Part shown: one piece after another, positions 1 to 52,101 of the stretch
Layout of the letters: the number at the start of each line of letters is the position of its first letter
Position numbering within the stretch: the stretch's first letter is position 1
Origin: Flavobacteriales bacterium
GTDB taxonomy: Bacteria; Bacteroidota; Bacteroidia; NS11-12g; UBA9320
Direction of reading: 5' to 3'
DNA length: 64,000 bases
Assembly: GCA_020635395.1 (NCBI GenBank)
Contig: JACJZV010000001.1
Coordinates: 647,545 to 711,544, forward strand
Made by a program: the position numbers and the translations under genes
The notes under the pieces: generated by a model
Seen by the model: only the letters and a program-made list of their open reading frames with translations
Databases searched by the model: none
What the model was told of the DNA's origin: nothing

Positions 1-150
1 AAAAGTAACTCTATTTTTCAACTATTTCAAAAAAGTTGCAATTTTAATCTTCTTATTATCAGCGAGTTAATTGTGTTTTGTTTTTGAGGTAAAAATCTAA
101 AATAGCGTTGAGGGTAGTTGTGCAACAGCTACCCGTGTTAGCAGTAGCAA
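1..150. repeat. Cassette-associated repeat A1. It is about 98% identical to 44683..44832 and lies immediately 3' (minus-strand sense) of the beta-lactamase gene
   Basis: Direct comparison of 1..150 with 44683..44832 shows only about 3 mismatches. It carries the internal 10-bp motif GTTGTGCAAC (117..126) and the terminal motifs cagctaccc and gttagcRgtag. Confidence 0.8.
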
Positions 151-153
151 TTC

Positions 154-960
154 TCATCTATCAGTTAGTTTGAGGTCGTTAAGGATTAAATAAACAATGT
201 CTATTCGAGCATTTGCAAAGTCCTTATTGTTTAAGTCAGCCGATTGAATGCAGTTAGCGAAATAATAAACTTTGTCTTTATTCTCAAGATAGCCAACATA
301 CCACCCAATATCTTTATTGTCTTGTCCGCCCCAACCAGTTTTTGCTCTAATTACATAATTCAATGTGTCCTTTGCAATCATTATATTTTTAACAATATCC
401 ATTGAACGCTTTGAAAAGGGAAGTTGGTTGTCGTGAAGTCGTTTTAAAAAGTCAATTTGTTGTTTGGGAGAAACACGAAGTCCACCAGTAAGCCAAAACT
501 TGTCTATGCCACCTGAAGTGTCAACGTTTCCATAGTTTGCTTTATCAAGCCAGTATTTCATTTGTTGTCCGCCAACTCGTTTTGCAAGTTCTTGATAATA
601 CCAAACTGTAGAATTTTTGAAAGCGGTCTTTAAGTCGTGGTCGCTATTCCAGTTTGGGTTTTGTCGGGTTACACTGTCCCAAGGAATTACAAAGTTCTCG
701 TCTTTAATTACTCCTGTCTCAAGTCCGATAAGCGAGTTACAAATTTTATAAGTCGAGGCAGGTGAAAAAGTTTGCTCGAATTGGTCTTTGTTGTAAAAAA
801 CATATTTGTCGTCTTGTGGGTCGTAAAGAACGAAAGAACCGCCAACATTAAATTGGTCGTAATATTTTTTAAAGTCGTCACGAATTTCTACCACCTGCTT
901 TTGCTTACAAGCTGTTAGTCCGAGAACCATTAAAGTCAAAATTATTATTGTCTTTTTCAC
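154..960 (-). CDS. Class D (OXA-family) beta-lactamase, lipoprotein-type signal peptide
   Basis: The 268-aa product has a lipoprotein-like N-terminus (LTAC). It has the class D active-site motifs STYK (S-x-x-K), STV (S-x-V), YGN and KTGWG plus a downstream W. Likely GTG start. Confidence 0.8.
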   Translation of the reverse strand: MKKTIIILTLMVLGLTACKQKQVVEIRDDFKKYYDQFNVGGSFVLYDPQDDKYVFYNKDQFEQTFSPASTYKICNSLIGLETGVIKDENFVIPWDSVTRQNPNWNSDHDLKTAFKNSTVWYYQELAKRVGGQQMKYWLDKANYGNVDTSGGIDKFWLTGGLRVSPKQQIDFLKRLHDNQLPFSKRSMDIVKNIMIAKDTLNYVIRAKTGWGGQDNKDIGWYVGYLENKDKVYYFANCIQSADLNNKDFANARIDIVYLILNDLKLTDR

Positions 961-2844: not shown

Positions 2845-2861
2845 AGTTGTCTGTCTTAAAA

Positions 2862-2930
2862 TGGCAGCTAACATCCCTATATGCCCAATACAATAGTCCA
2901 ATTGTGCATATTTCCATTATCTATGCAACA
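2862..2930 (-). promoter_or_regulatory. Conserved array-head element H1. It is about 80% identical to 51812..51880 and placed about -18 to -86 relative to the first gene of array 1
   Basis: The blocks tagataatggaaatatgc, attgtattgggcatata and ggatgtta are shared with H2 at the same distance from the start codon of the first gene of array 2. It contains GTTAGCTGCC. Confidence 0.5.
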
Positions 2931-15257: not shown

Positions 15258-16799
15258 TTATCTAACTTTCATAAGGTCAATTCTTCTGGCAGGATATTGC
15301 AAACCAGGAGAAGCCGAACCTTCAGTATCCATAATGAATCTGTCGCGAGGCACACCATAGTTAGAGTTTAAGTAATCAATAATGGCATTGATTCGTTGCT
15401 GAGCCAATTGAGAACCTGATTTACTTCTAACAGAGTAACCAGTCATCAATACATTCAAATCAGGACAAGATTTCATTTTTTCAGCAACACTATACAACAC
15501 ACCAATTGCCTCAGGGCTGATTGTATGACTACCATTGTCAAAAATGATTGCTGGAAGCATTACATCAGAACAGTCGCAGCAGCCGCCGACATCGCCAGAA
15601 GTTTTAATAGTTTCACCTCTTGGGTTAACGGCAACACCTTTTTGAGTGTTTAATTCTTCATCTCTATAATCAGGCACACCGTCACCATCAACATCAATCA
15701 TAATGCCGTTAGCATCAACTTCAGAACCTCTTTCTGAGTCAATTTGTTTGTCTTTATTGTCAGGTACACCATCTTTGTCAAGGTCAACAGTAACCCCAGA
15801 ACCCCAAACGTACGCATCAGGATCTGTGTCAGGTTCTTTGTCGAAATAATCGGCTACACCGTCATTATCAGTATCTAACAAAAGAAGTTCAACCTTTTCT
15901 TGTATCATTACAAGCGTGTCCATAGTTTCATAGATGTTCTCAACAGGGTTCAACCAATCGTAGTGTTCTTTAGAACCATCTTTTCCGCCAAGTTTAATAC
16001 TTGCTTGGAAGCTTAATAAACCGTAGAAGTCAAAAACACGGTTTCTCCAAATTGGGAAAGAGAATGCATCAATATTATCGCTACGTGTGTAGTGGTTTTT
16101 GTACTCCATGCCCAAATCCAACCATCTGTTCACATTTCTTTTAAATCCAACACCAAAAGGAATAGTAAAGTTGGTTCCCTTGTACACAGATATTAAATCA
16201 ACTACGTTTCCGTTATTATCCAACTTTTGGGTGAAAAAACCTTGGTCTCCCCAAGTGTCCCACATGGCTTGCTCATTAGTTTGATATTGACCATATTGGC
16301 CTTTTACATCACTCCAAATGGCACCGAAACCAGTAAAGAAATACATTTGCCATTTACGCAAAGGTCGAATAAACGAAAGATTACCTAAAGTTAAATTGGC
16401 AGTAACGTTTAAATCTTTAAACTTGTTATTAAAGTAATAGCTGTCATCCGAAGGGGCTTGATTTCCTGCATTGAAATACTGAGTCCCATCCGAAGTATTG
16501 TTTCGGTCTTTCGAACTGTTTCCGCTGATATCATGACCGTCCCGTGAACCACTCAAAGTTCCTATATTTCCATTAACTTTAATTCCAAAGGTTTGAGAAA
16601 CAGAATACTTGGCGTGTGCTCCAAAAGCAAAATTTGCTTTGAAATGGTCAGCGTCACACATGGTGTGAGTAGGACTCAACTGAATTCCAACAGACCATCG
16701 CTTAGAATAGCGAAACTTTCCAAAAAAATCGGTCTGCGACATTGCACTCTGGCTTACAACCAAAGCACCTAAAAGCAACAAAGTTTTTAAATTTTTCAT
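15258..16799 (-). CDS. OmpA-family outer-membrane protein with thrombospondin type-3 (TSP3) Ca-binding repeats
   Basis: Signal peptide, an N-terminal beta-barrel-like region, DxDxDGxxD repeats, and a C-terminal OmpA peptidoglycan-binding domain. Confidence 0.75.
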   Translation of the reverse strand: MKNLKTLLLLGALVVSQSAMSQTDFFGKFRYSKRWSVGIQLSPTHTMCDADHFKANFAFGAHAKYSVSQTFGIKVNGNIGTLSGSRDGHDISGNSSKDRNNTSDGTQYFNAGNQAPSDDSYYFNNKFKDLNVTANLTLGNLSFIRPLRKWQMYFFTGFGAIWSDVKGQYGQYQTNEQAMWDTWGDQGFFTQKLDNNGNVVDLISVYKGTNFTIPFGVGFKRNVNRWLDLGMEYKNHYTRSDNIDAFSFPIWRNRVFDFYGLLSFQASIKLGGKDGSKEHYDWLNPVENIYETMDTLVMIQEKVELLLLDTDNDGVADYFDKEPDTDPDAYVWGSGVTVDLDKDGVPDNKDKQIDSERGSEVDANGIMIDVDGDGVPDYRDEELNTQKGVAVNPRGETIKTSGDVGGCCDCSDVMLPAIIFDNGSHTISPEAIGVLYSVAEKMKSCPDLNVLMTGYSVRSKSGSQLAQQRINAIIDYLNSNYGVPRDRFIMDTEGSASPGLQYPARRIDLMKVR

Positions 16800-41977: not shown

Positions 41978-42020
41978 CCTCCTTATGGGGAGAGCCGCCT
42001 ACTCGTTTGGCAGCTACCCT
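41978..42020. repeat. Module W/Y copy (cctccttatggggagagccgcctactcg..cagctaccc) at the distal end of array 2
   Basis: The same 25-bp W module terminates the B elements at 46264, 47782, 48583 and 49305. Confidence 0.6.
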
Positions 42021-42601
42021 TCTTTTATCATTTTATAGATATTCGATTGATTAAACTGTTCTCTCCATTTCTCAATTCTATCAGTCTCACTTTCAATTTT
42101 TTGAATCTGAAATGATTCCACAAAACCAATTTTTAACCGAATTTCTTTTCCACCTTCATCTAATGGTATTTGAACAAAACAATCATGCTCATCACAAGTA
42201 ATTTTTGACTTAATTAAAGCTGAATCAATTTTGTTTGACAAGAATTCTTTTCCAAATTCCATTTGATAGGATAGCACTTTTAACGAATCTATTGTATTGT
42301 TACTGGTGTATATTGAATCTAATGATTGACGAGACAATTTGTGTTCTCCTAATCGTTTGTATATCTCGTATCTTAACAGGTTTGCCTTTTCATTTACTTG
42401 CATAACACAAAGGCCACAGGTGCAATAACCACACGTTTCAGCTTCCGTTATTTGCTTCAATGCTTTTTCGTTTTTTCCCTTAGTAACGTTTTTCTCTGCT
42501 TTATCAAGTAACATAAATGAATTCTGACCATAGCTCAACTGATAAAATACTATGAGTGTCACTATGGCGAAGGATCTGAGATATTTTACTTCTATTTTCA
42601 T
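42014..42601 (-). CDS. Hypothetical secreted protein (cassette-like array gene)
   Basis: Signal peptide. No recognised domain. Confidence 0.4.
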   Translation of the reverse strand: MKIEVKYLRSFAIVTLIVFYQLSYGQNSFMLLDKAEKNVTKGKNEKALKQITEAETCGYCTCGLCVMQVNEKANLLRYEIYKRLGEHKLSRQSLDSIYTSNNTIDSLKVLSYQMEFGKEFLSNKIDSALIKSKITCDEHDCFVQIPLDEGGKEIRLKIGFVESFQIQKIESETDRIEKWREQFNQSNIYKMIKEG

Positions 42602-43438: not shown

Positions 43439-43689
43439 GGAGAAGCCAAATCATCTAAACGTACTTTATTTAAAATTCTGTACGAATTTCTCCTCTTCAG
43501 TGCATGGTGTAAATATAGTTCGAAAGATAAGAAATTGATTGTCAATTTGATATAAATTATTTCCGTCTGGAACAGGTGCATCTAAATCGGGGAAGCCACT
43601 ATTCGGCGACGTCGCCAACATTGCTATTATTATCACAAAAGGTCAAGTTAGCACGTGTCCTCCAGTGGTGGAAACAGCCGTATTCTATA

Positions 43690-43775
43690 CCCCAATCCCG
43701 ATAGCTATCGGGATTGGGGTGAGAGGTACACTCTCATCATTTATGGGGAGAGCCGCCTACTTGATTATGTGCTGT
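43690..43775. repeat. Composite repeat made of a perfect 30-bp palindrome V (ccccaatcccgatagctatcgggattgggg), then a truncated B 3' half, then the W module
   Basis: The palindrome was read directly. The gaggtacactctcatcatttatggggagagccgcctacttg part matches the B-element 3' end. Confidence 0.7.
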
Positions 43776-43782
43776 TATTTTT

Positions 43783-44511
43783 TTATTCATATGGTTTCCA
43801 GTTTTTGTCTTTGGGTTCCTTGTAATTTGCAGGTCTTACATTTCGCTTCATTTCTTCATCACAAGCTCCGAACTCAATAAAGTTTTTTTGTGCCTGTCTT
43901 AACGAAATTGTGTTTGCTCCACCTTCATAATATGGGTCGTCAAGTTGGATTGGGTCATCTTCCCAAAAGCATACAGGGCAAATATCATAAGTTCCATTTG
44001 GTTTCTCCGTAAACGTTTTATGTCCACAACAAGGACAAGCAAATTTTGAATTAACTGTCAATATTAGTAATGCCTTTTCCAATGCATCTTTGTCAAAACC
44101 GATTGATGGTCTTGTTGCAACCCAGCGTTCTTTTATATACTCTGGCAATGCGTTTATTGATTGGTCATCATCAATAATAACATAGTTCTGTCCCTCTCCT
44201 TTTTTTTCAACCCATTCTTTAATTTCGGTTCCTCTGTCTAATAATTGACTTATTTCTGTTTTGTTATTTAGTTTTGATATTGTTTCAAAATTCAATCCTC
44301 TTAATCTAAAAATCTCTTTCCATTTAGTTTCGTCATAATTTATTCTATGAGTTGTTGTCAAAACTATCGAAGCATTTGTCCTTTTGTGAAGGATTAATAA
44401 GTTTTCAAGTGCTTTTTTATTTAGTTTCATAAATCCGTCAGAATATATTTCTGCCTGTCGCCAAGTAGGTGTCGTTTCCAAAACTCCGTCTATGTCTAAA
44501 AGTATTGTCAT
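43783..44511 (-). CDS. HAD-like hydrolase domain fused to a cysteine-rich CPCC domain
   Basis: N-terminal DxD HAD motif (LLDIDGVL) and a C-terminal CPCCGHKTF...CPVCFWEDD cysteine-rich CPCC-type module. Confidence 0.5.
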   Translation of the reverse strand: MTILLDIDGVLETTPTWRQAEIYSDGFMKLNKKALENLLILHKRTNASIVLTTTHRINYDETKWKEIFRLRGLNFETISKLNNKTEISQLLDRGTEIKEWVEKKGEGQNYVIIDDDQSINALPEYIKERWVATRPSIGFDKDALEKALLILTVNSKFACPCCGHKTFTEKPNGTYDICPVCFWEDDPIQLDDPYYEGGANTISLRQAQKNFIEFGACDEEMKRNVRPANYKEPKDKNWKPYE

Positions 44512-44682
44512 TCTGTTTTGTGTCGGTCTTTATAATAGCACATAACTTTTTGCCGCTTGCCGCAGTGGGGGATTTCGAAGCACTTCACTTTCAACCAAGC
44601 ACAAATGTTGATAGAATCACAGCACTTGATTTAACCACGTCAACCCCCATTGCGGCAAACGACTGTGCCTGTTGCACAACTC
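44512..44682. repeat. ORF-less structured spacer element with a 12-bp inverted repeat (ccgcaGtggggg / cccccaTtgcgg) and module Z (atttcgaagcac)
   Basis: Read directly. No credible ORF. It lies between repeat A2 and the CPCC gene. Confidence 0.5.
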
Positions 44683-44832
44683 AAAAGTAACTCTATTTTT
44701 CAACTATTTCAAAAAAGTTGCAATTTTAATCTTCTTATTACCAGCGAGTTAATTGTGTTTTGTTTTTGAGGTAAAAATCTAAAATAGCGTTGAGGGTAGT
44801 TGTGCAACAGCTACCCGTGTTAGCGGTAGTGT
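44683..44832. repeat. Cassette-associated repeat A2, about 98% identical to 1..150
   Basis: Direct comparison. It is bounded by the inverted 10-mers GTTGCACAAC (44671..44680) and GTTGTGCAAC (44799..44808). Confidence 0.85.
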
Positions 44833-45267
44833 TTACGTCATGTGTTTAAGGAAAAGTGTAATGGTTTCATATGTCAATTCGTTATCCTTGATTATATAGT
44901 TGTCAAACCAGTCGTTGTTACTTAGTGTTTGTGCTACCAACCAAGATTCTTTGCCAAGATATAAAAATCGTTTGCCGCCAACTTGTATTAACCATGAACC
45001 AAAATCCTTCTCGTGATAAGATTCTTTTGTAATCACCTTGTCTGTTAGTCGTAATAAGCAAAAGTCGAAAAGAAATTTATTCCAATTGCTTGAAACTTTT
45101 CTTTCAATGTCAAACGCATAACTTATAGCCTTGTCAATCGTATTATCAGTTGCATTGTCAACCAATTCTGCTTTTCGCCCAAATTTGTCAGTAAGAGTAA
45201 CTTTAAAAACTCCGTTCGAAATTTCGTCAATTTTAGTTGTCCAACCTGGTAGTGATTTTGTGTTCAT
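44833..45267 (-). CDS. Hypothetical protein (cassette-like array gene)
   Basis: ORF only. Confidence 0.4.
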   Translation of the reverse strand: MNTKSLPGWTTKIDEISNGVFKVTLTDKFGRKAELVDNATDNTIDKAISYAFDIERKVSSNWNKFLFDFCLLRLTDKVITKESYHEKDFGSWLIQVGGKRFLYLGKESWLVAQTLSNNDWFDNYIIKDNELTYETITLFLKHMT

Positions 45268-45269
45268 AG

Positions 45270-45400
45270 TGTCTGTCTAACATTACCGCCAACGGTTTCG
45301 GGCTTTGCGTTCGGGCGGGTTTCGGAGCACAAAGTTTCAATTTATTACTAAAGTTTATTAGAAGCACAAAGCTCCATCCCGATAGCTATCGGGATTGCAC
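45270..45400. repeat. Composite repeat made of module C (ttaccgccaacggtttcgggctttgcgttcgggcgggtttcggagcac) plus palindrome V copy (atcccgatagctatcgggatt)
   Basis: Related to 965..1045 and 43690..43719. Confidence 0.6.
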
Positions 45401-45440
45401 GTCAACCCGCATGACGCAACCCGTGTTATAGCCAGTTTTT

Positions 45441-46047: not shown

Positions 46048-46165
46048 AAAATTGGCTATAACGTGCCAGCACTAAATGTTGTGCCACTTTTTTCACTATT
46101 TGTTGTCAGTATAAATATACAATTTTATTTCTAATTCCCTGTCTGTCAGGCATAACATTTAGTGC

Positions 46166-46292
46166 ACGTGTGTGCCGCCAATGGCAAACACCCTCCAAGT
46201 TTAGTTGAAAGGAGAGTGATAACCAATAGTTATGTTGGATTAGCTAATGAGGTGTACACTCCTCATTTATGGGGAGTTCCGCCTACTCGATT
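46166..46292. repeat. B-family structured repeat copy B1
   Basis: gtgtgccgccaatggcaaacaccctcc..aggagagtgataaccaatagttatgttggattagctaatgaggtgtacactcctcatttatggggag..cgcctactcg. Internal hairpins are ataac/gttat, ttagctaa and aatgagg/cctcatt. Confidence 0.8.
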
Positions 46293-46298
46293 ATGGGC

Positions 46299-47513
46299 TT
46301 ACAATTCAATTTTCCAAAGACCATTTTTGCCTCCGACAATTACGCTTCCCTTAGGATCGATTGCAAGGTAAAAAGCACTTTCAATGCCAGCAAATAAGTC
46401 CTTTGACCTAAAAGTATAATATTCCCCATTACTTGTCCGAATACCGAAGTCTGGATAACCCATCCAACTTGTTGTATACCAAATATTAGATTTTTCATCA
46501 ATAACTATAGAATTTGGTAATGGAATTACCGTTCCACAGTCTGGTTTTAATTTTTCATTGAAAGATTCAGATTGAATATCCAACCCTAATCCAATAAATG
46601 ATTTACTAAACCCAGGGTTTTGACCATAATGTGTACTATTATATAGATTAATACAAGGGATATTTATAACAGAATTTTTTTCGAAAACACTTCCAAATTG
46701 CTGAATACTGTCAAATGTGAAAGTTTTCCACTCATTATTTTTAATTCTAAGTAATTCAGCTTGTGAGGCTGCATTTATTCCATTACCTTTAGTTGCATAG
46801 AATCTGACCCAAACGGAGTTATCACTGGTTATAGTTATTCCATCAAGTCTTTTACCTACTGGTAGTCCATTATTTTCTGTGAATGTTAAAACATCGGAAG
46901 CTGAAATTAAACTCAATCCATTTTCCTCCCAGTTGGATCCAGGCTGAGGCTGGGTCGTATGACCTACCCAAACATTGTCAGATTGGTCAACTGCAACATA
47001 TTTCGTATGGTTATTTAGGAGACCTTCATTTTTTGAAAAGAGTTGCATTGAATTCCAGTCATATCTGCACAAACCCTTGGGAGTAGCCATCCATAATCGT
47101 CCTTTGCTGTCTTCATCAACTCCTGTAATAGTGTCTGAAGGTAATCCATCTTCTTTGCCAATATGTAACCATTTTTGTTGGGCAAAATCGAAATAATCTG
47201 CACCTTTATTCGTTCCAACCAGAATTGCCCCTGATACCTTGGAAACTGACAGATGATTAATTCGCCCGTTTGCTAAATTATGGGTTAAGTTTTCTTTTTT
47301 TTCAAAAATAGAGAAGTCGTTAAAGTTTTTACTATTCCAGCAGCTATCCCAAGTAAATTCGGACACGACAACTAGAGGTTTAGATGGTTCCTCTTTTTCT
47401 TTACAAGATAATGCCAAAATAGAAAAAGAGATAACTAAGAATGTAATTGTTTTATTCATATTTCTGTTTTTAGTTCTGACTAACGCAAAATTATGTTTCT
47501 GATTACCAAGCAA
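46299..47513 (-). CDS. Lipoprotein with two-component-regulator-propeller (Reg_prop-like) beta-propeller repeats
   Basis: Lipoprotein signal and repeated ..DG..W.GT..GL..YD blades. Confidence 0.45.
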   Translation of the reverse strand: MLGNQKHNFALVRTKNRNMNKTITFLVISFSILALSCKEKEEPSKPLVVVSEFTWDSCWNSKNFNDFSIFEKKENLTHNLANGRINHLSVSKVSGAILVGTNKGADYFDFAQQKWLHIGKEDGLPSDTITGVDEDSKGRLWMATPKGLCRYDWNSMQLFSKNEGLLNNHTKYVAVDQSDNVWVGHTTQPQPGSNWEENGLSLISASDVLTFTENNGLPVGKRLDGITITSDNSVWVRFYATKGNGINAASQAELLRIKNNEWKTFTFDSIQQFGSVFEKNSVINIPCINLYNSTHYGQNPGFSKSFIGLGLDIQSESFNEKLKPDCGTVIPLPNSIVIDEKSNIWYTTSWMGYPDFGIRTSNGEYYTFRSKDLFAGIESAFYLAIDPKGSVIVGGKNGLWKIEL

Positions 47514-47682
47514 TCACAAAGTATCATTTTTTACCTCTTTTTCAGAGGTTTTTTCGACTTCGTTGGCCTCCAAAATTAATAAAGAAAATTCAGAAATGAG
47601 AAATTGAATTAGACTCATTTCGGAATTTTTATTTTTGGATTGCCCATAACGGTGAGTGTACGCGTAGTTTGCACGTTTAGGG

Positions 47683-47816
47683 CTACACCGTGTGTGTGTG
47701 CCGCCAATGGCAAACACCCTCCAGAAAGGAGAGTGATAACCAATAGTTATGTTGGATTAGCTAATGAGGTGTACACTCCTCATTTATGGGGAGAGTCGCC
47801 TACTCGTTTGTGTGTA
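47683..47816. repeat. B-family repeat copy B2. It has an 11-bp deletion relative to B1 and is flanked by the imperfect inverted repeat ctacaccgtgtg / tgtgtgtag
   Basis: Direct comparison. Its 3' flank encodes the last 4 codons of the upstream ORF. Confidence 0.8.
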
Positions 47817-48414
47817 GTTTTTGTTCTTTATATACTTTCGTTATTTCGCTTTTTAATTCATTGTACCTTTTAGGTTCGGTCAGTTTTTTCAGTGAATTAA
47901 TTGTGATTGAGCTCTGACTTCTTTCATAGTTGTCAAGTCGATATGTTGGTAGAACATAAAAATCCCATTGCTCCATTTTTAAAGGGTCAATTGTTTTTTG
48001 GTCTTTGTGTTTTAAATGACAGAACACATAAAGGTCAGCGTGTCTTTTGGGTTCTCCACGTTGCATATTTGTTTCTGCATCCCAATATCTTGCAGGTTTA
48101 ATTGAAAATGAAATAGTCGAAAAGTTCTTTTGATTCCAACTTTGAATATAAGCGGCAGATTTGACTTCTATTTTTATTCCGTCGATAGTTGTCAAGTCAT
48201 ATGCATCCCATTCATCTCTTAAATTTTCAGGATTTAGTCCAACTGCTGTCCCGACGATAAACTCTGCAAATCTTCCGCGAGTTGCATTGCTCAAAATGTC
48301 AGAAACGCTCCAACGCCAAAAGTCCAATAGGTTAAAATTTGTTTCCTTACCATTGTCGGTAAGGGTTTCATTTCCGTTTTTGGGGCTTGCTTTTATTTCT
48401 TTGAGTTCGTTCAT
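47800..48414 (-). CDS. Hypothetical protein with a PD-(D/E)xK-like nuclease motif
   Basis: D..(x)n..IEVKS arrangement (DAYDLTTIDGIKIEVKSAAY). Weak. Confidence 0.35.
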   Translation of the reverse strand: MNELKEIKASPKNGNETLTDNGKETNFNLLDFWRWSVSDILSNATRGRFAEFIVGTAVGLNPENLRDEWDAYDLTTIDGIKIEVKSAAYIQSWNQKNFSTISFSIKPARYWDAETNMQRGEPKRHADLYVFCHLKHKDQKTIDPLKMEQWDFYVLPTYRLDNYERSQSSITINSLKKLTEPKRYNELKSEITKVYKEQKLHTNE

Positions 48415-48482
48415 TTCTAATTACACACGACGGTTCGTATATGGTGTCGTAGCATCCCGCAGGGTGCTATGTATTATATACC

Positions 48483-48618
48483 ATGTGTGTGCCGCAAATG
48501 GCAAACACTCTCCAAATTTAGCTGAAAGGAGGGTGATAACCAATAGTTATATCGGATTAGTTGATGAGGTGCACACTCCTCATTCGTGGCGAGAGCCGCC
48601 TAATGGATTGTGTGTATT
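48483..48618. repeat. B-family repeat copy B3, the most diverged
   Basis: About 85% identical to B1. Confidence 0.7.
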
Positions 48619-49047
48619 ATCTGTTAAAATTCTGTTTTTTGGAATCAGCTGATGCATTACGAGTAAAAATAATACACCTTTAGTAAAACCATTTGGAATA
48701 AACTTTACAAACGAGTCGTAAATATCAAATTGAAATCCTAATCCAGCTCCTATTATTAAAGAAATTATTATGGAAGAAATTAAGCAAACAATGCCATAAA
48801 TGCTACCAAATATTAAAGCTTTTGATAGCGATATTCCGAGATTATCTTTTGAAATATTCCTTACTAACAAATGGGTTACGAAAGCGGTAATTATTAAAAA
48901 TAAAAACTCTAAAACCATCTCATAGATGAAAAAATAGATATTGAATATTCTAGTCATTTCAAATTCGGTAAATATTAATTTTCTAATCAAATCTATTCCA
49001 ATTGAGATTAATCCAAAAAACAATATTGCTCTAAAAACCTTTGTCAT
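48580..49047 (-). CDS. Small integral membrane protein (4 TM). Its last 11 codons are encoded by the B3/W repeat
   Basis: Hydrophobic profile. The C-terminus THNPLGGSRHE is read through the repeat. Confidence 0.4.
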   Translation of the reverse strand: MTKVFRAILFFGLISIGIDLIRKLIFTEFEMTRIFNIYFFIYEMVLEFLFLIITAFVTHLLVRNISKDNLGISLSKALIFGSIYGIVCLISSIIISLIIGAGLGFQFDIYDSFVKFIPNGFTKGVLFLLVMHQLIPKNRILTDNTHNPLGGSRHE

Positions 49048-49211
49048 TCTTTACAGTTTATCTTAGTGTTATGCATACGCTGCGATTACGCATAACGGTA
49101 TAGGGTAAGAAACGTAGGGCATTTCGAAGCAATTTCCTGTTCACCGAAACGGAACTTGCTAAGAGCCCAAAACTTGCGGAAACCACTGCCCGCCCTATGT
49201 TTTATACCCAT

Positions 49212-49345
49212 TGTGCGTGCCGCCAATGGTAAACGCCCTCCAAATTTAGTTGAAAGGAAAGTGATAACCAATAGTTATGTTGGAATAGCTAAATAGGTAC
49301 ACTCTCCTCATTTATGGGGAGAGCCGCCTACTCGATTAGGAGCAT
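49212..49345. repeat. B-family repeat copy B4
   Basis: About 90% identical to B1. Confidence 0.8.
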
Positions 49346-49350
49346 CATAA

Positions 49351-49854
49351 TTATGAAATCCAAATCATTTCATTGCTTACAACTCGCCATTTTCCGAGGC
49401 GTTTTTTTAATTCAACAACATTTCCAGACGAGCTTAAGTTACCTTCGTAATATCCACAATAAACACTGGCTTTGTTTCCAGACACAATTACTTTTGAAAT
49501 ATTGAATGAAAGAAAATCAATTTCACTTTTTTCTTCGTCTGTCATATTATTGAACATTGAAATGTCCTTTACTTTGGGAGAATTCCTTTTTAGCTTATCC
49601 AATACAAATGGTAAGGATTGATTGAGAGAATCGTCTAAACTTAGAAAATAGTAGGTGGCTTTTTCTTTGGTTGCAGATGCGTTTTCTTTAAATAATGCTT
49701 TGAATGCAGCAACTTCAATTTTAACCAATGTCGTCTTTGGGATATTGTTATTCTGCAAACCCTCTTTTATATTTCCTGTCTTTTGGCTGAATACTGTGCC
49801 AGAAAGAAGTAAGAGAAGTGTCGGAAACACAAGGACTTTGAGTATTAAATTCAT
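49351..49854 (-). CDS. Hypothetical secreted protein (cassette-like array gene)
   Basis: Signal peptide. Confidence 0.4.
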   Translation of the reverse strand: MNLILKVLVFPTLLLLLSGTVFSQKTGNIKEGLQNNNIPKTTLVKIEVAAFKALFKENASATKEKATYYFLSLDDSLNQSLPFVLDKLKRNSPKVKDISMFNNMTDEEKSEIDFLSFNISKVIVSGNKASVYCGYYEGNLSSSGNVVELKKRLGKWRVVSNEMIWIS

Positions 49855-51811: not shown

Positions 51812-51880
51812 TTTAATGCCCTATAACATCCGTATATGCCCAATACAATGTTCCTATTACGCATATTTCCATTATCTACG
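51812..51880 (-). promoter_or_regulatory. Conserved array-head element H2, about 80% identical to 2862..2930
   Basis: See H1. Same spacing from the first start codon. Confidence 0.5.
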
Positions 51881-52101
51881 AAACCAAAACAGGGTTTGAA
51901 ATTTAATGTATCCGTTTTCATTTTTTTTGGCTTCGTTCCATTCAGTCAAATATAGAAACTTTTTTTAGAAATTATCCAAAATGCCAATAGCACCTTGCGG
52001 TTTGTAACAAGGCCAAAGAAAAATGCCATTCTGTCACCATTTTAGGTTAAAAAGTGGTTGGCAAAGTAGTTGATATTGCCCAAACATTAATTCATAATCG
52101 G

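Follow-up and report, generated by a model that had tools for sequence, protein, structure and literature searches.

The window examined here (i.e., the whole stretch of DNA that was analysed, 64,000 nt) contains two arrays of short, unrelated open reading frames (ORFs) that lie on the same strand; the region's genes are all on the minus strand. Array 2 runs from window position 51884 down to 41983, and array 1 from window position 2929 past the start of the window to about position 16700 of locus L001, which provides the DNA before window position 1 (from GCA_041391645.1, contig JAWKNP010000003.1; window position x corresponds to position 131406 + x of the JAWKNP010000003.1 record). The intergenic regions of the arrays are imperfect palindromes of 60-150 nt that, read on the gene strand, have a YTAAC-type box just after the stop codon and a CGTTAGC-, GTTATGC- or GTTGGCG-type end before the next ORF; as single strands, six of the eight sites tested fold into long bulged stems (z from -2.4 to -4.3). 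A near-identical repeat, hereafter element A, sits in both arrays. The cassette ORFs that adjoin its two copies in the window (A1 and A2) are as follows:

154-930, minus strand: class D beta-lactamase cassette ORF, directly upstream of A1 (258 aa; NF012161 at 273 bits against a cut-off of 250; Pfam Transpeptidase)
44833-45267, minus strand: cassette ORF directly upstream of A2 (144 aa; no family match)
43783-44511, minus strand: cassette ORF downstream of A2 (HAD_SAK_2 and Cys_rich_CPCC), the gene that a promoter borne by element A would drive

The box II motif of tyrosine recombinases was not found in six-frame translations of the window or of any fetched locus, and no integrase is present among the annotated ORFs of the 84 kb examined. 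Given attC-like sites and no integrase in the examined DNA, the arrays resemble CALINs (PMC4889954), that is, clusters of attC sites lacking an integrase (PMC4889954, PMC9024848), with the sites judged by eye and by folding and with true integron membership unproven. Complete integrons are reported to be rare in Bacteroidetes (PMC9024848).

Several other features of the arrays deserve description. Some cassette products, all encoded on the minus strand, are defence-like or nuclease-like, namely, an OLD-like ATPase (AAA_15/AAA_21 plus DUF4435; 1051-2874), which is the first cassette of array 1, a T4 endonuclease IV-like protein (47800-48414) and the HAD_SAK_2 plus CPCC protein (43783-44511). 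The class D (OXA-type) beta-lactamase at 154-930 has a lipoprotein-like signal peptide and represents a cassette in an environmental Bacteroidota chromosome; the same protein is found on a second contig (>1 Mb) of another assembly. Both arrays start with homologous 70-nt sequences (window 2860-2929 and 51815-51884; 83% identical), which look like a short attC-like site ending in GTTAGCT or GTTATAG right before the first ORF. No integrase and no obvious attI was detected upstream of these starts, where the SSB gene lies on one side and grpE-dnaJ on the other. Further, two independent read-set assemblies of this locus (Logan contigs L062 and L063, at about window 3001) both end 326 nt past the SSB gene, some 70 nt short of the first attC-like site in array 1, and a further 864-bp contig ends about 20 nt past a cassette stop codon. 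This points to arrays that differ from strain to strain or contain enough repeats to interrupt assembly.

Element A and its copies

An earlier note on this DNA, made from the sequence alone, had described element A as a 150-bp pair of about 98% identity with about 3 differences, enclosed by a perfect 10-bp inverted pair, and had read it as an attC-like site. The repeat itself is confirmed, with window positions 1-147 aligning without gaps and collinearly to 44683-44829 with two mismatches (T/C at 59 and A/G at 143), but the count of differences is not: the match ends at 147, and positions 148-150 are unlike 44830-44832, which gives 2 differences over 147 nt or 5 over 150 nt. The inverted pair, GTTGCACAAC (44671-44680) and GTTGTGCAAC (44799-44808), is indeed exact, with its arms 118 nt apart, and can be extended to 13 perfect bp (44669-44681 and 44798-44810). 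Exact matches to the 10-mer in the 64-kb window number three, all within element A at its two sites. The left arm of copy 1 (A1), which falls beyond the window edge, is present in L001 with one mismatch (GTTGTGAAAC on the cassette strand), and the copy terminates there in ...GAGTTGTGAAACAGGC. A third copy (A3) was identified at L001 12351-12496, about 1.4 kb beyond the window start and two cassettes past A1. A2 shares 98.6% identity with A1 and 96.6% with A3. The copies are 146-148 bp long and contain no ORF. They lie on the minus (gene) strand, where the two in the window begin 3-6 nt downstream of the stop codons of unrelated ORFs. The note's view that element A is a recently copied or active sequence stands. 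Its parts within the window, named according to the interpretation developed below, are:

44667-44814, minus strand: copy A2 of the probable MITE, complete, 148 bp, 5'-GTAGCTGTTGCACAACTACC...GAGTTGTGCAACAGGC-3' on the minus strand; its ends are those of full-length IS1182-family elements
44798-44810, minus strand: terminal inverted repeat, end 1, CTGTTGCACAACT, which holds the right-hand 10-mer
44669-44681, minus strand: terminal inverted repeat, end 2, AGTTGTGCAACAG, which holds the left-hand 10-mer
44682-44713, minus strand: putative promoter motif of Bacteroidetes type, TTTG-N20-TACTTTTG, pointing out of end 2 to the next cassette
1-132, minus strand: copy A1, cut by the window edge; its last 16 nt, including end 2, are at L001 10931-10946

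Direct repeats of 98.6% identity in the same orientation and 44.7 kb apart, as A1 and A2 are, might also be attL/attR-like boundary repeats of a 44.7-kb integrated element or the result of a segmental duplication. We consider this next to impossible, given that a third copy lies 1.5 kb from A1, that the 44.7-kb interval holds housekeeping genes (a murA-like EPSP synthase, His-tRNA synthetase and the carbamoyl-phosphate synthase small chain), that no integrase motif was found in the window or any fetched locus, and that the identity is limited to 148 bp plus a 15-nt target box. A template/variable repeat pair of a DGR was rejected as well, both copies being non-coding and just past stop codons and their two differences not being adenine-specific. 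A search of the whole window against Rfam at gathering thresholds returned no match, and hence, no known RNA family accounts for element A or for the other repeat of the arrays (D1, below); a viral contig scan gave no match either.

Full-length relatives with the same ends

The termini of element A, GTAGCTGTTGCACAAC...GTTGTGCAACARGC, also bound elements of 1.69-1.77 kb in metagenome contigs; the ends GTAGCTGTTGCACAAC...GTTGTGCAACAGGC equal those of transposase-bearing elements of 1.68-1.77 kb. The 21-mer at the 5' end of element A is present in three other Bacteroidota MAGs, and its 19-mer core in 50 metagenome contigs. The database scans relied on exact 19- and 21-mers and therefore, conservation of this end is given by construction, and the independent evidence comes from the flanks and the far ends only. 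In nearly all contigs with the 19-mer, an ORF stop codon and a YAACA box precede the motif, and the sequence after the motif varies by family. In 11 contigs, the 19-mer represents one end of an element of 1,684-1,768 bp, the other end of which reads GTTGTGCAACA(A/T)GC, with ORFs of 534-543 aa inside. Two such ORFs matched the NCBIfam model of the IS1182 family transposase (NF033551) at 312.7 and 309.9 bits (cut-off 270), the ORFs of these IS also match Pfam DUF772, DDE_Tnp_1_6 and DDE_Tnp_1, and tblastn recovered the same transposase, at 37-100% identity, in 22 fetched loci.

Both ends and both junctions of element A are identical to those of autonomous IS copies. Having exactly the IS termini and junctions, element A is best viewed as a MITE of that IS lineage, and we deem it highly probable that it is a 148-bp, non-coding MITE of an IS1182-family lineage that inserts at one fixed spot in attC-like palindromes. 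The complementary 10-mers, previously taken for the R''/R' pair of an attC site, are accordingly reinterpreted as the core of the terminal inverted repeats, the same termini bounding the 1.7-kb IS1182-family IS. A further short derivative (256 bp) was found in locus L050, the MAG SSF3 carries left-end fragments without a transposase, and 22 of 47 metagenome contigs break at or inside the element, as a multi-copy repeat would predict. The 84 kb of contig examined contain neither a full-length IS with these ends nor an IS1182 transposase, so a resident autonomous partner is unproven, and blastn of the MITE against all fetched loci revealed similarity confined to about 20 nt at each end, its interior matching no sampled IS.

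The transposases fall into subgroups that are about 46-48% identical to each other (L020, L024, L031, L036 and L047 vs. L012, L026, L030 and L051), and their genes point in opposite directions with respect to the GTAGC end of the element. The subterminal regions (about 60-110 nt inside the GTAGC end) of L010, L014, L034 and L051 show clustered motifs such as TGTGGATAAC, GTTGATAAC and TGTGCATAAC, the first of which is identical to a DnaA-box sequence; clustered motifs of this type are found in L013, L030 and L012 too, so that several IS subgroups carry them. These motifs could be binding sites for the transposase or a host factor. For the small 5' hairpin of element A (GGGTAG...CTACCC), we also considered an IS200/IS605-type or REP-type hairpin end as well as a group II intron end, and dropped both after the far ends and the DDE transposase had been found.

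Target position and interrupted attC-like sites

The 48 distinct upstream flanks gave the consensus aCwGCnnmYAACA-NNN, followed immediately by the element end, with YAACA at positions -8 to -4 in 47 of the 48 flanks and a gap of exactly 3 nt to the element end in 42. The GTAGC end always abuts the R''-like box, whatever the orientation of the transposase gene, and thus it is apparently the asymmetric end sequences, and not the orientation of the gene, that determine the insertion orientation. In all cases with a visible right flank, this flank runs on into a palindrome that ends in a CGTTAYG-type sequence, and hence, the target is consistently attC-like. At the copies in the window, the relevant segments are:

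44815-44829, minus strand: target flank of A2 on the ORF side, where the 6-mer ACACGG directly adjoins the MITE and is overlapped by the R''-like box CTACCGCTAAC
133-147, minus strand: target flank of A1, with the R''-like box CTACTGCTAAC and with ACACGG (133-138) repeated exactly at L001 10947-10952
44540-44666, minus strand: the rest of the attC-like site interrupted by A2, a long imperfect stem GTTTGCCGCAATGGGGG...CCCCCACTGCGGCAAGC with an R'-like GTTATGT (44540-44546); fold z = -3.05
45283-45440, minus strand: uninterrupted paralogue of the attC-like site of A1, ..TATA/ACACGG/GTTGCG.., no MITE; fold z = -4.33

The order of features is the same in A1, A2 and A3, i.e., stop codon, R''-like box (CTACYGCTAAC; degenerate in A3), 4 nt, the 148-bp element, attC-like stem, GTTRRRY-like end (GTTGGGC, GTTATGT or GTTTGGT past the three copies) and next ORF. 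The stems that follow the element (GTTTTGCGTCAGGCGGG...CCCGCCCGAACGCAAAGC, GTTTGCCGCAATGGGGG...CCCCCACTGCGGCAAGC and GTTTGGCAAAAGCAGGG...CCCTGCTTTCGCCAAGC) differ in sequence between the copies and remain self-complementary. The paralogue at 45283-45440 reads TATA-ACACGG-GTTGCGTCATGCGGG and aligns with the part of the A1 site that comes after the MITE. Together, the fixed order and the uninterrupted paralogue indicate that element A is an insertion into an attC-like site and not the site itself. This empty-site comparison is based on a paralogue, not an orthologue; look-ups with neighbouring proteins did not recover an orthologous empty site, the only contigs returned being the source contig itself and short ones that are interrupted at the array.

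These data also bear on whether element A is itself an attC-type site, its 10-mers being the R'' and R' that an integron integrase would read on a folded single strand, which we judge extremely unlikely. The single strand of element A does form a 13-bp closing stem (z = -2.8 to -3.7), but this terminal stem is all that forms: the AT-rich interior beyond it is not palindromic and essentially unpaired, with no L''/L' stem, whereas the neighbouring sites have imperfect stems of 17-25 bp. The arms each differ from RYYYAAC or GTTRRRY at a single position, and the distance between the arms (about 118 nt) is within the attC size range; however, the very same arms are the ends of a 1.7-kb IS that encodes a transposase. 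Similarly, while element A begins just past ORF stop codons in a cassette-like array, an R''-like YTAAC box is found upstream of it, as at uninterrupted sites, and a palindrome that is attC-like and complete follows each copy, its separate GTTATGT or GTTGGGC end lying 120-130 nt downstream of the element and adjoining the next ORF. The three copies share 96.6-98.6% identity, whereas the attC-like sites of the array share structure and not sequence, and no integrase motif was found in any fetched DNA. In other words, of the hallmarks of attC sites, element A shows neither the full-length imperfect palindrome with paired L boxes and extrahelical bases, nor an ORF-proximal RYYYAAC combined with a GTTRRRY that abuts the next cassette, nor the combination of conserved structure with variable sequence within an array. 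We also rejected an ORF-less cassette placed by an integrase, for the roughly 25 nt between the upstream stop codon and the element leave no room for the attC of the upstream cassette.

The earlier note was correct in placing the copies at the 3' ends of cassette ORFs in an integron-like setting, but this association, which it had offered as a test, did not discriminate between an attC site and a transposon, since it is the ORF-proximal end of attC-like sites at which the transposon inserts. The presence of the left arm at copy 1 did not discriminate between the two readings either.

Evidence for insertion by transposition comes from the flanks. Among the 13 elements for which both flanks were available, the 6-bp flank is repeated at all six positions in five and at five of six in three; since ACA is fixed in ACANNN, only three bases are informative, and all three match in six of the 13 elements (chance of 1 in 64 each). 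The repeat around A1 is ACACGG (6/6) and that around A3 shares CATCG (5/6), and these differing duplications denote independent insertions of the same 148-bp element. A2, the copy on which the earlier note was centred, shows ACACGG vs. ACAGTC (44815-44820 vs. 44661-44666; 3/6), that is, no duplication, and duplications are also absent in L019, L020, L024 and L050. Loci L020, L024 and L047 have a common right flank and different left flanks; more generally, several copies without matching duplications, A2 among them, have one flank in common with another copy.

Alternatively, element A might be a functional intergenic module (a terminator plus promoter, or an sRNA gene) that has spread by homologous recombination or gene conversion, its likeness to IS ends being a relic. 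The absence of a duplication at A2, the upstream flank that A2 and A1 have in common, the outward promoter motif within the element and the lack of a transposase nearby are all in line with this scenario, which we nonetheless regard as very unlikely, since the duplications flanking A1 and A3 differ and each matches its own target site, a pattern that gene conversion does not give. Further, element A has no Rfam match at gathering thresholds, and its ends and junctions are identical to those of autonomous IS copies. Spread of this kind is compatible, on the other hand, with a MITE origin followed by secondary spread, as we propose for A2. Insertion as a MITE remains our preferred reading; A2 probably arose by recombination between MITE copies, and L020, L024 and L047 are likewise interpreted as products of recombination between copies. 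Flanks of this kind are what recombination between dispersed copies would be expected to leave, and such events could reshuffle cassette order.

The arrays contain a second repeat family (D1; about 140 nt, 62-80% identity, ..YTAATCGAGTAGGCGGCTCTCCCCATAAATGAGGAG...TTGGCGGCACACACA), found in at least nine cassettes at the following positions:

Window 46150-46317, 47667-47834, 48467-48634 and 49195-49362: D1 copies
Window 43640-43791: D1 copy, variant
Window 41983-42028: D1 copy, partial
L001 13140-13290, 15185-15335 and 16556-16710: D1 copies

Like the MITE, and at nearly the same place, D1 follows closely on the R''-like box and precedes the attC-like stem. Terminal inverted repeats are absent from D1, its flanks show no clear duplication, and no match to it was obtained in the other fetched loci. 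A structured RNA was considered for D1 and rejected (zero compensatory base pairs).

Proposed mechanism and comparison with known systems

We propose that a full-length relative provides a DDE transposase in trans, which would recognise terminal inverted repeats of 12-16 bp (core TGTTGCACAAC). The element is then inserted in a single orientation at a point 4 nt 3' of AAC in the R''-like box (aCwGCnnmYAACA-NNN, then the insertion point), the box that opens each attC-like palindrome downstream of a cassette ORF. Insertion duplicates 6 bp (ACANNN) and leaves the element with the R''-like box on one side and the long stem of the attC-like site on the other, a position that would explain both why element A starts after unrelated stop codons and why a palindrome ending in GTTRRRY follows it. 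Mobilisation in trans is the route that we infer for this genome. An insert of 148 nt that parts the R''-like box from the stem should interfere with integrase-type folding of the site, if any occurs, and may disable recombination at that junction.

The internal motif TTTG-N20-TACTTTTG may, in addition, act as an outward promoter for the next cassette. The promoter consensus of Bacteroidetes is TTTG / TAnnTTTG, which the motif fits; it faces the remainder of the attC-like site and the cassette after it. The motif has 5 matches in the window vs. 2.8 expected and thus, a chance match is possible and the motif is to be taken as suggestive only. A scan for sigma-70 promoters and intrinsic terminators around the element revealed nothing above background.

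In a literature search (ISfinder excluded), we found no paper linking the IS1182 family or any MITE to attC targeting. It is possible, and we put this forward tentatively, that the elements described here constitute an undescribed lineage of DDE, IS1182-family IS and MITEs specialised for the attC-like sites of Bacteroidota arrays, inserting always in one orientation and 4 nt after the AAC of R'', with the MITE serving as a mobile promoter and possibly locking cassettes against excision where arrays have neither an integrase nor a common promoter; in one of these arrays, a cassette lies next to a class D beta-lactamase gene. If the promoter of the MITE is active, it would provide one route to cassette expression in such integrase-less, promoter-less arrays. 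The nearby beta-lactamase cassette indicates that resistance-type cassettes occur in these environmental arrays. In practical terms, a short repeat of a cassette array that has inverted arms of GTT...AAC type can prove to be a transposon lodged in an attC site and not such a site itself, and automated annotation of attC sites and cassettes in Bacteroidota could be misled in the same way.

The host arrays are similar to attC/CALIN arrays in having unrelated same-strand ORFs, each followed by a palindrome of 60-150 nt that runs from ..YTAAC to a GTTRRRY-like end; the difference from integron attC sites is that element A itself lacks attC architecture. Among MITEs, the Correia elements of Neisseria are comparable IS-derived examples. 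IS-derived bacterial MITEs such as MITEAba12 (PMC6382973) are likewise about 150 bp long, lack an ORF and have the same terminal inverted repeats as an autonomous IS, and they share with element A the short target duplications, the several near-identical copies, the intergenic location and a possible influence on neighbouring genes via an internal promoter. Unlike those MITEs, element A has IS1182 as its parent family and is inserted at one position and in one orientation of a structured, recombination-site-like target, whereas the others target a short degenerate sequence. What we describe is a new combination of known parts and not conceptually new biology.

With respect to effects on neighbouring cassettes, group IIC-attC introns, which are inserted in attC sites and carry functional outward promoters (PMC3001079), offer a documented precedent: they can block upstream read-through while they drive the next cassette, and by analogy the MITE may have the same effect. 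These introns are, however, retroelements, made up of a ribozyme and a reverse transcriptase, with the bottom strand as their insertion target, whereas the MITE is a 148-bp derivative of a DNA transposon.

Finally, the IS1111-attC group (ISKpn4, ISPst6, ISPa21 and others) consists, as here, of IS that invade attC sites at a fixed position and orientation. To our knowledge, IS1111-type elements make no target duplication. IS are known to invade cassette arrays, with IS5, IS3 and IS110/IS1111 transposases dominating in one survey (PMC11089894), and dedicated attC targeting has been established for the IS1111-attC group, the DEDD transposase of which is guided by a seekRNA (PMC11187229) and the elements of which have subterminal repeats. 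The lineage described here differs in its DDE transposase of the IS1182 family, its terminal inverted repeats, its 6-bp duplication, its Bacteroidota hosts and its miniature derivative. Our results point to a second, mechanistically different class of attC-targeting IS, with a DDE transposase of the IS1182 family and a 6-bp duplication, next to the known, RNA-guided IS1111-attC class.
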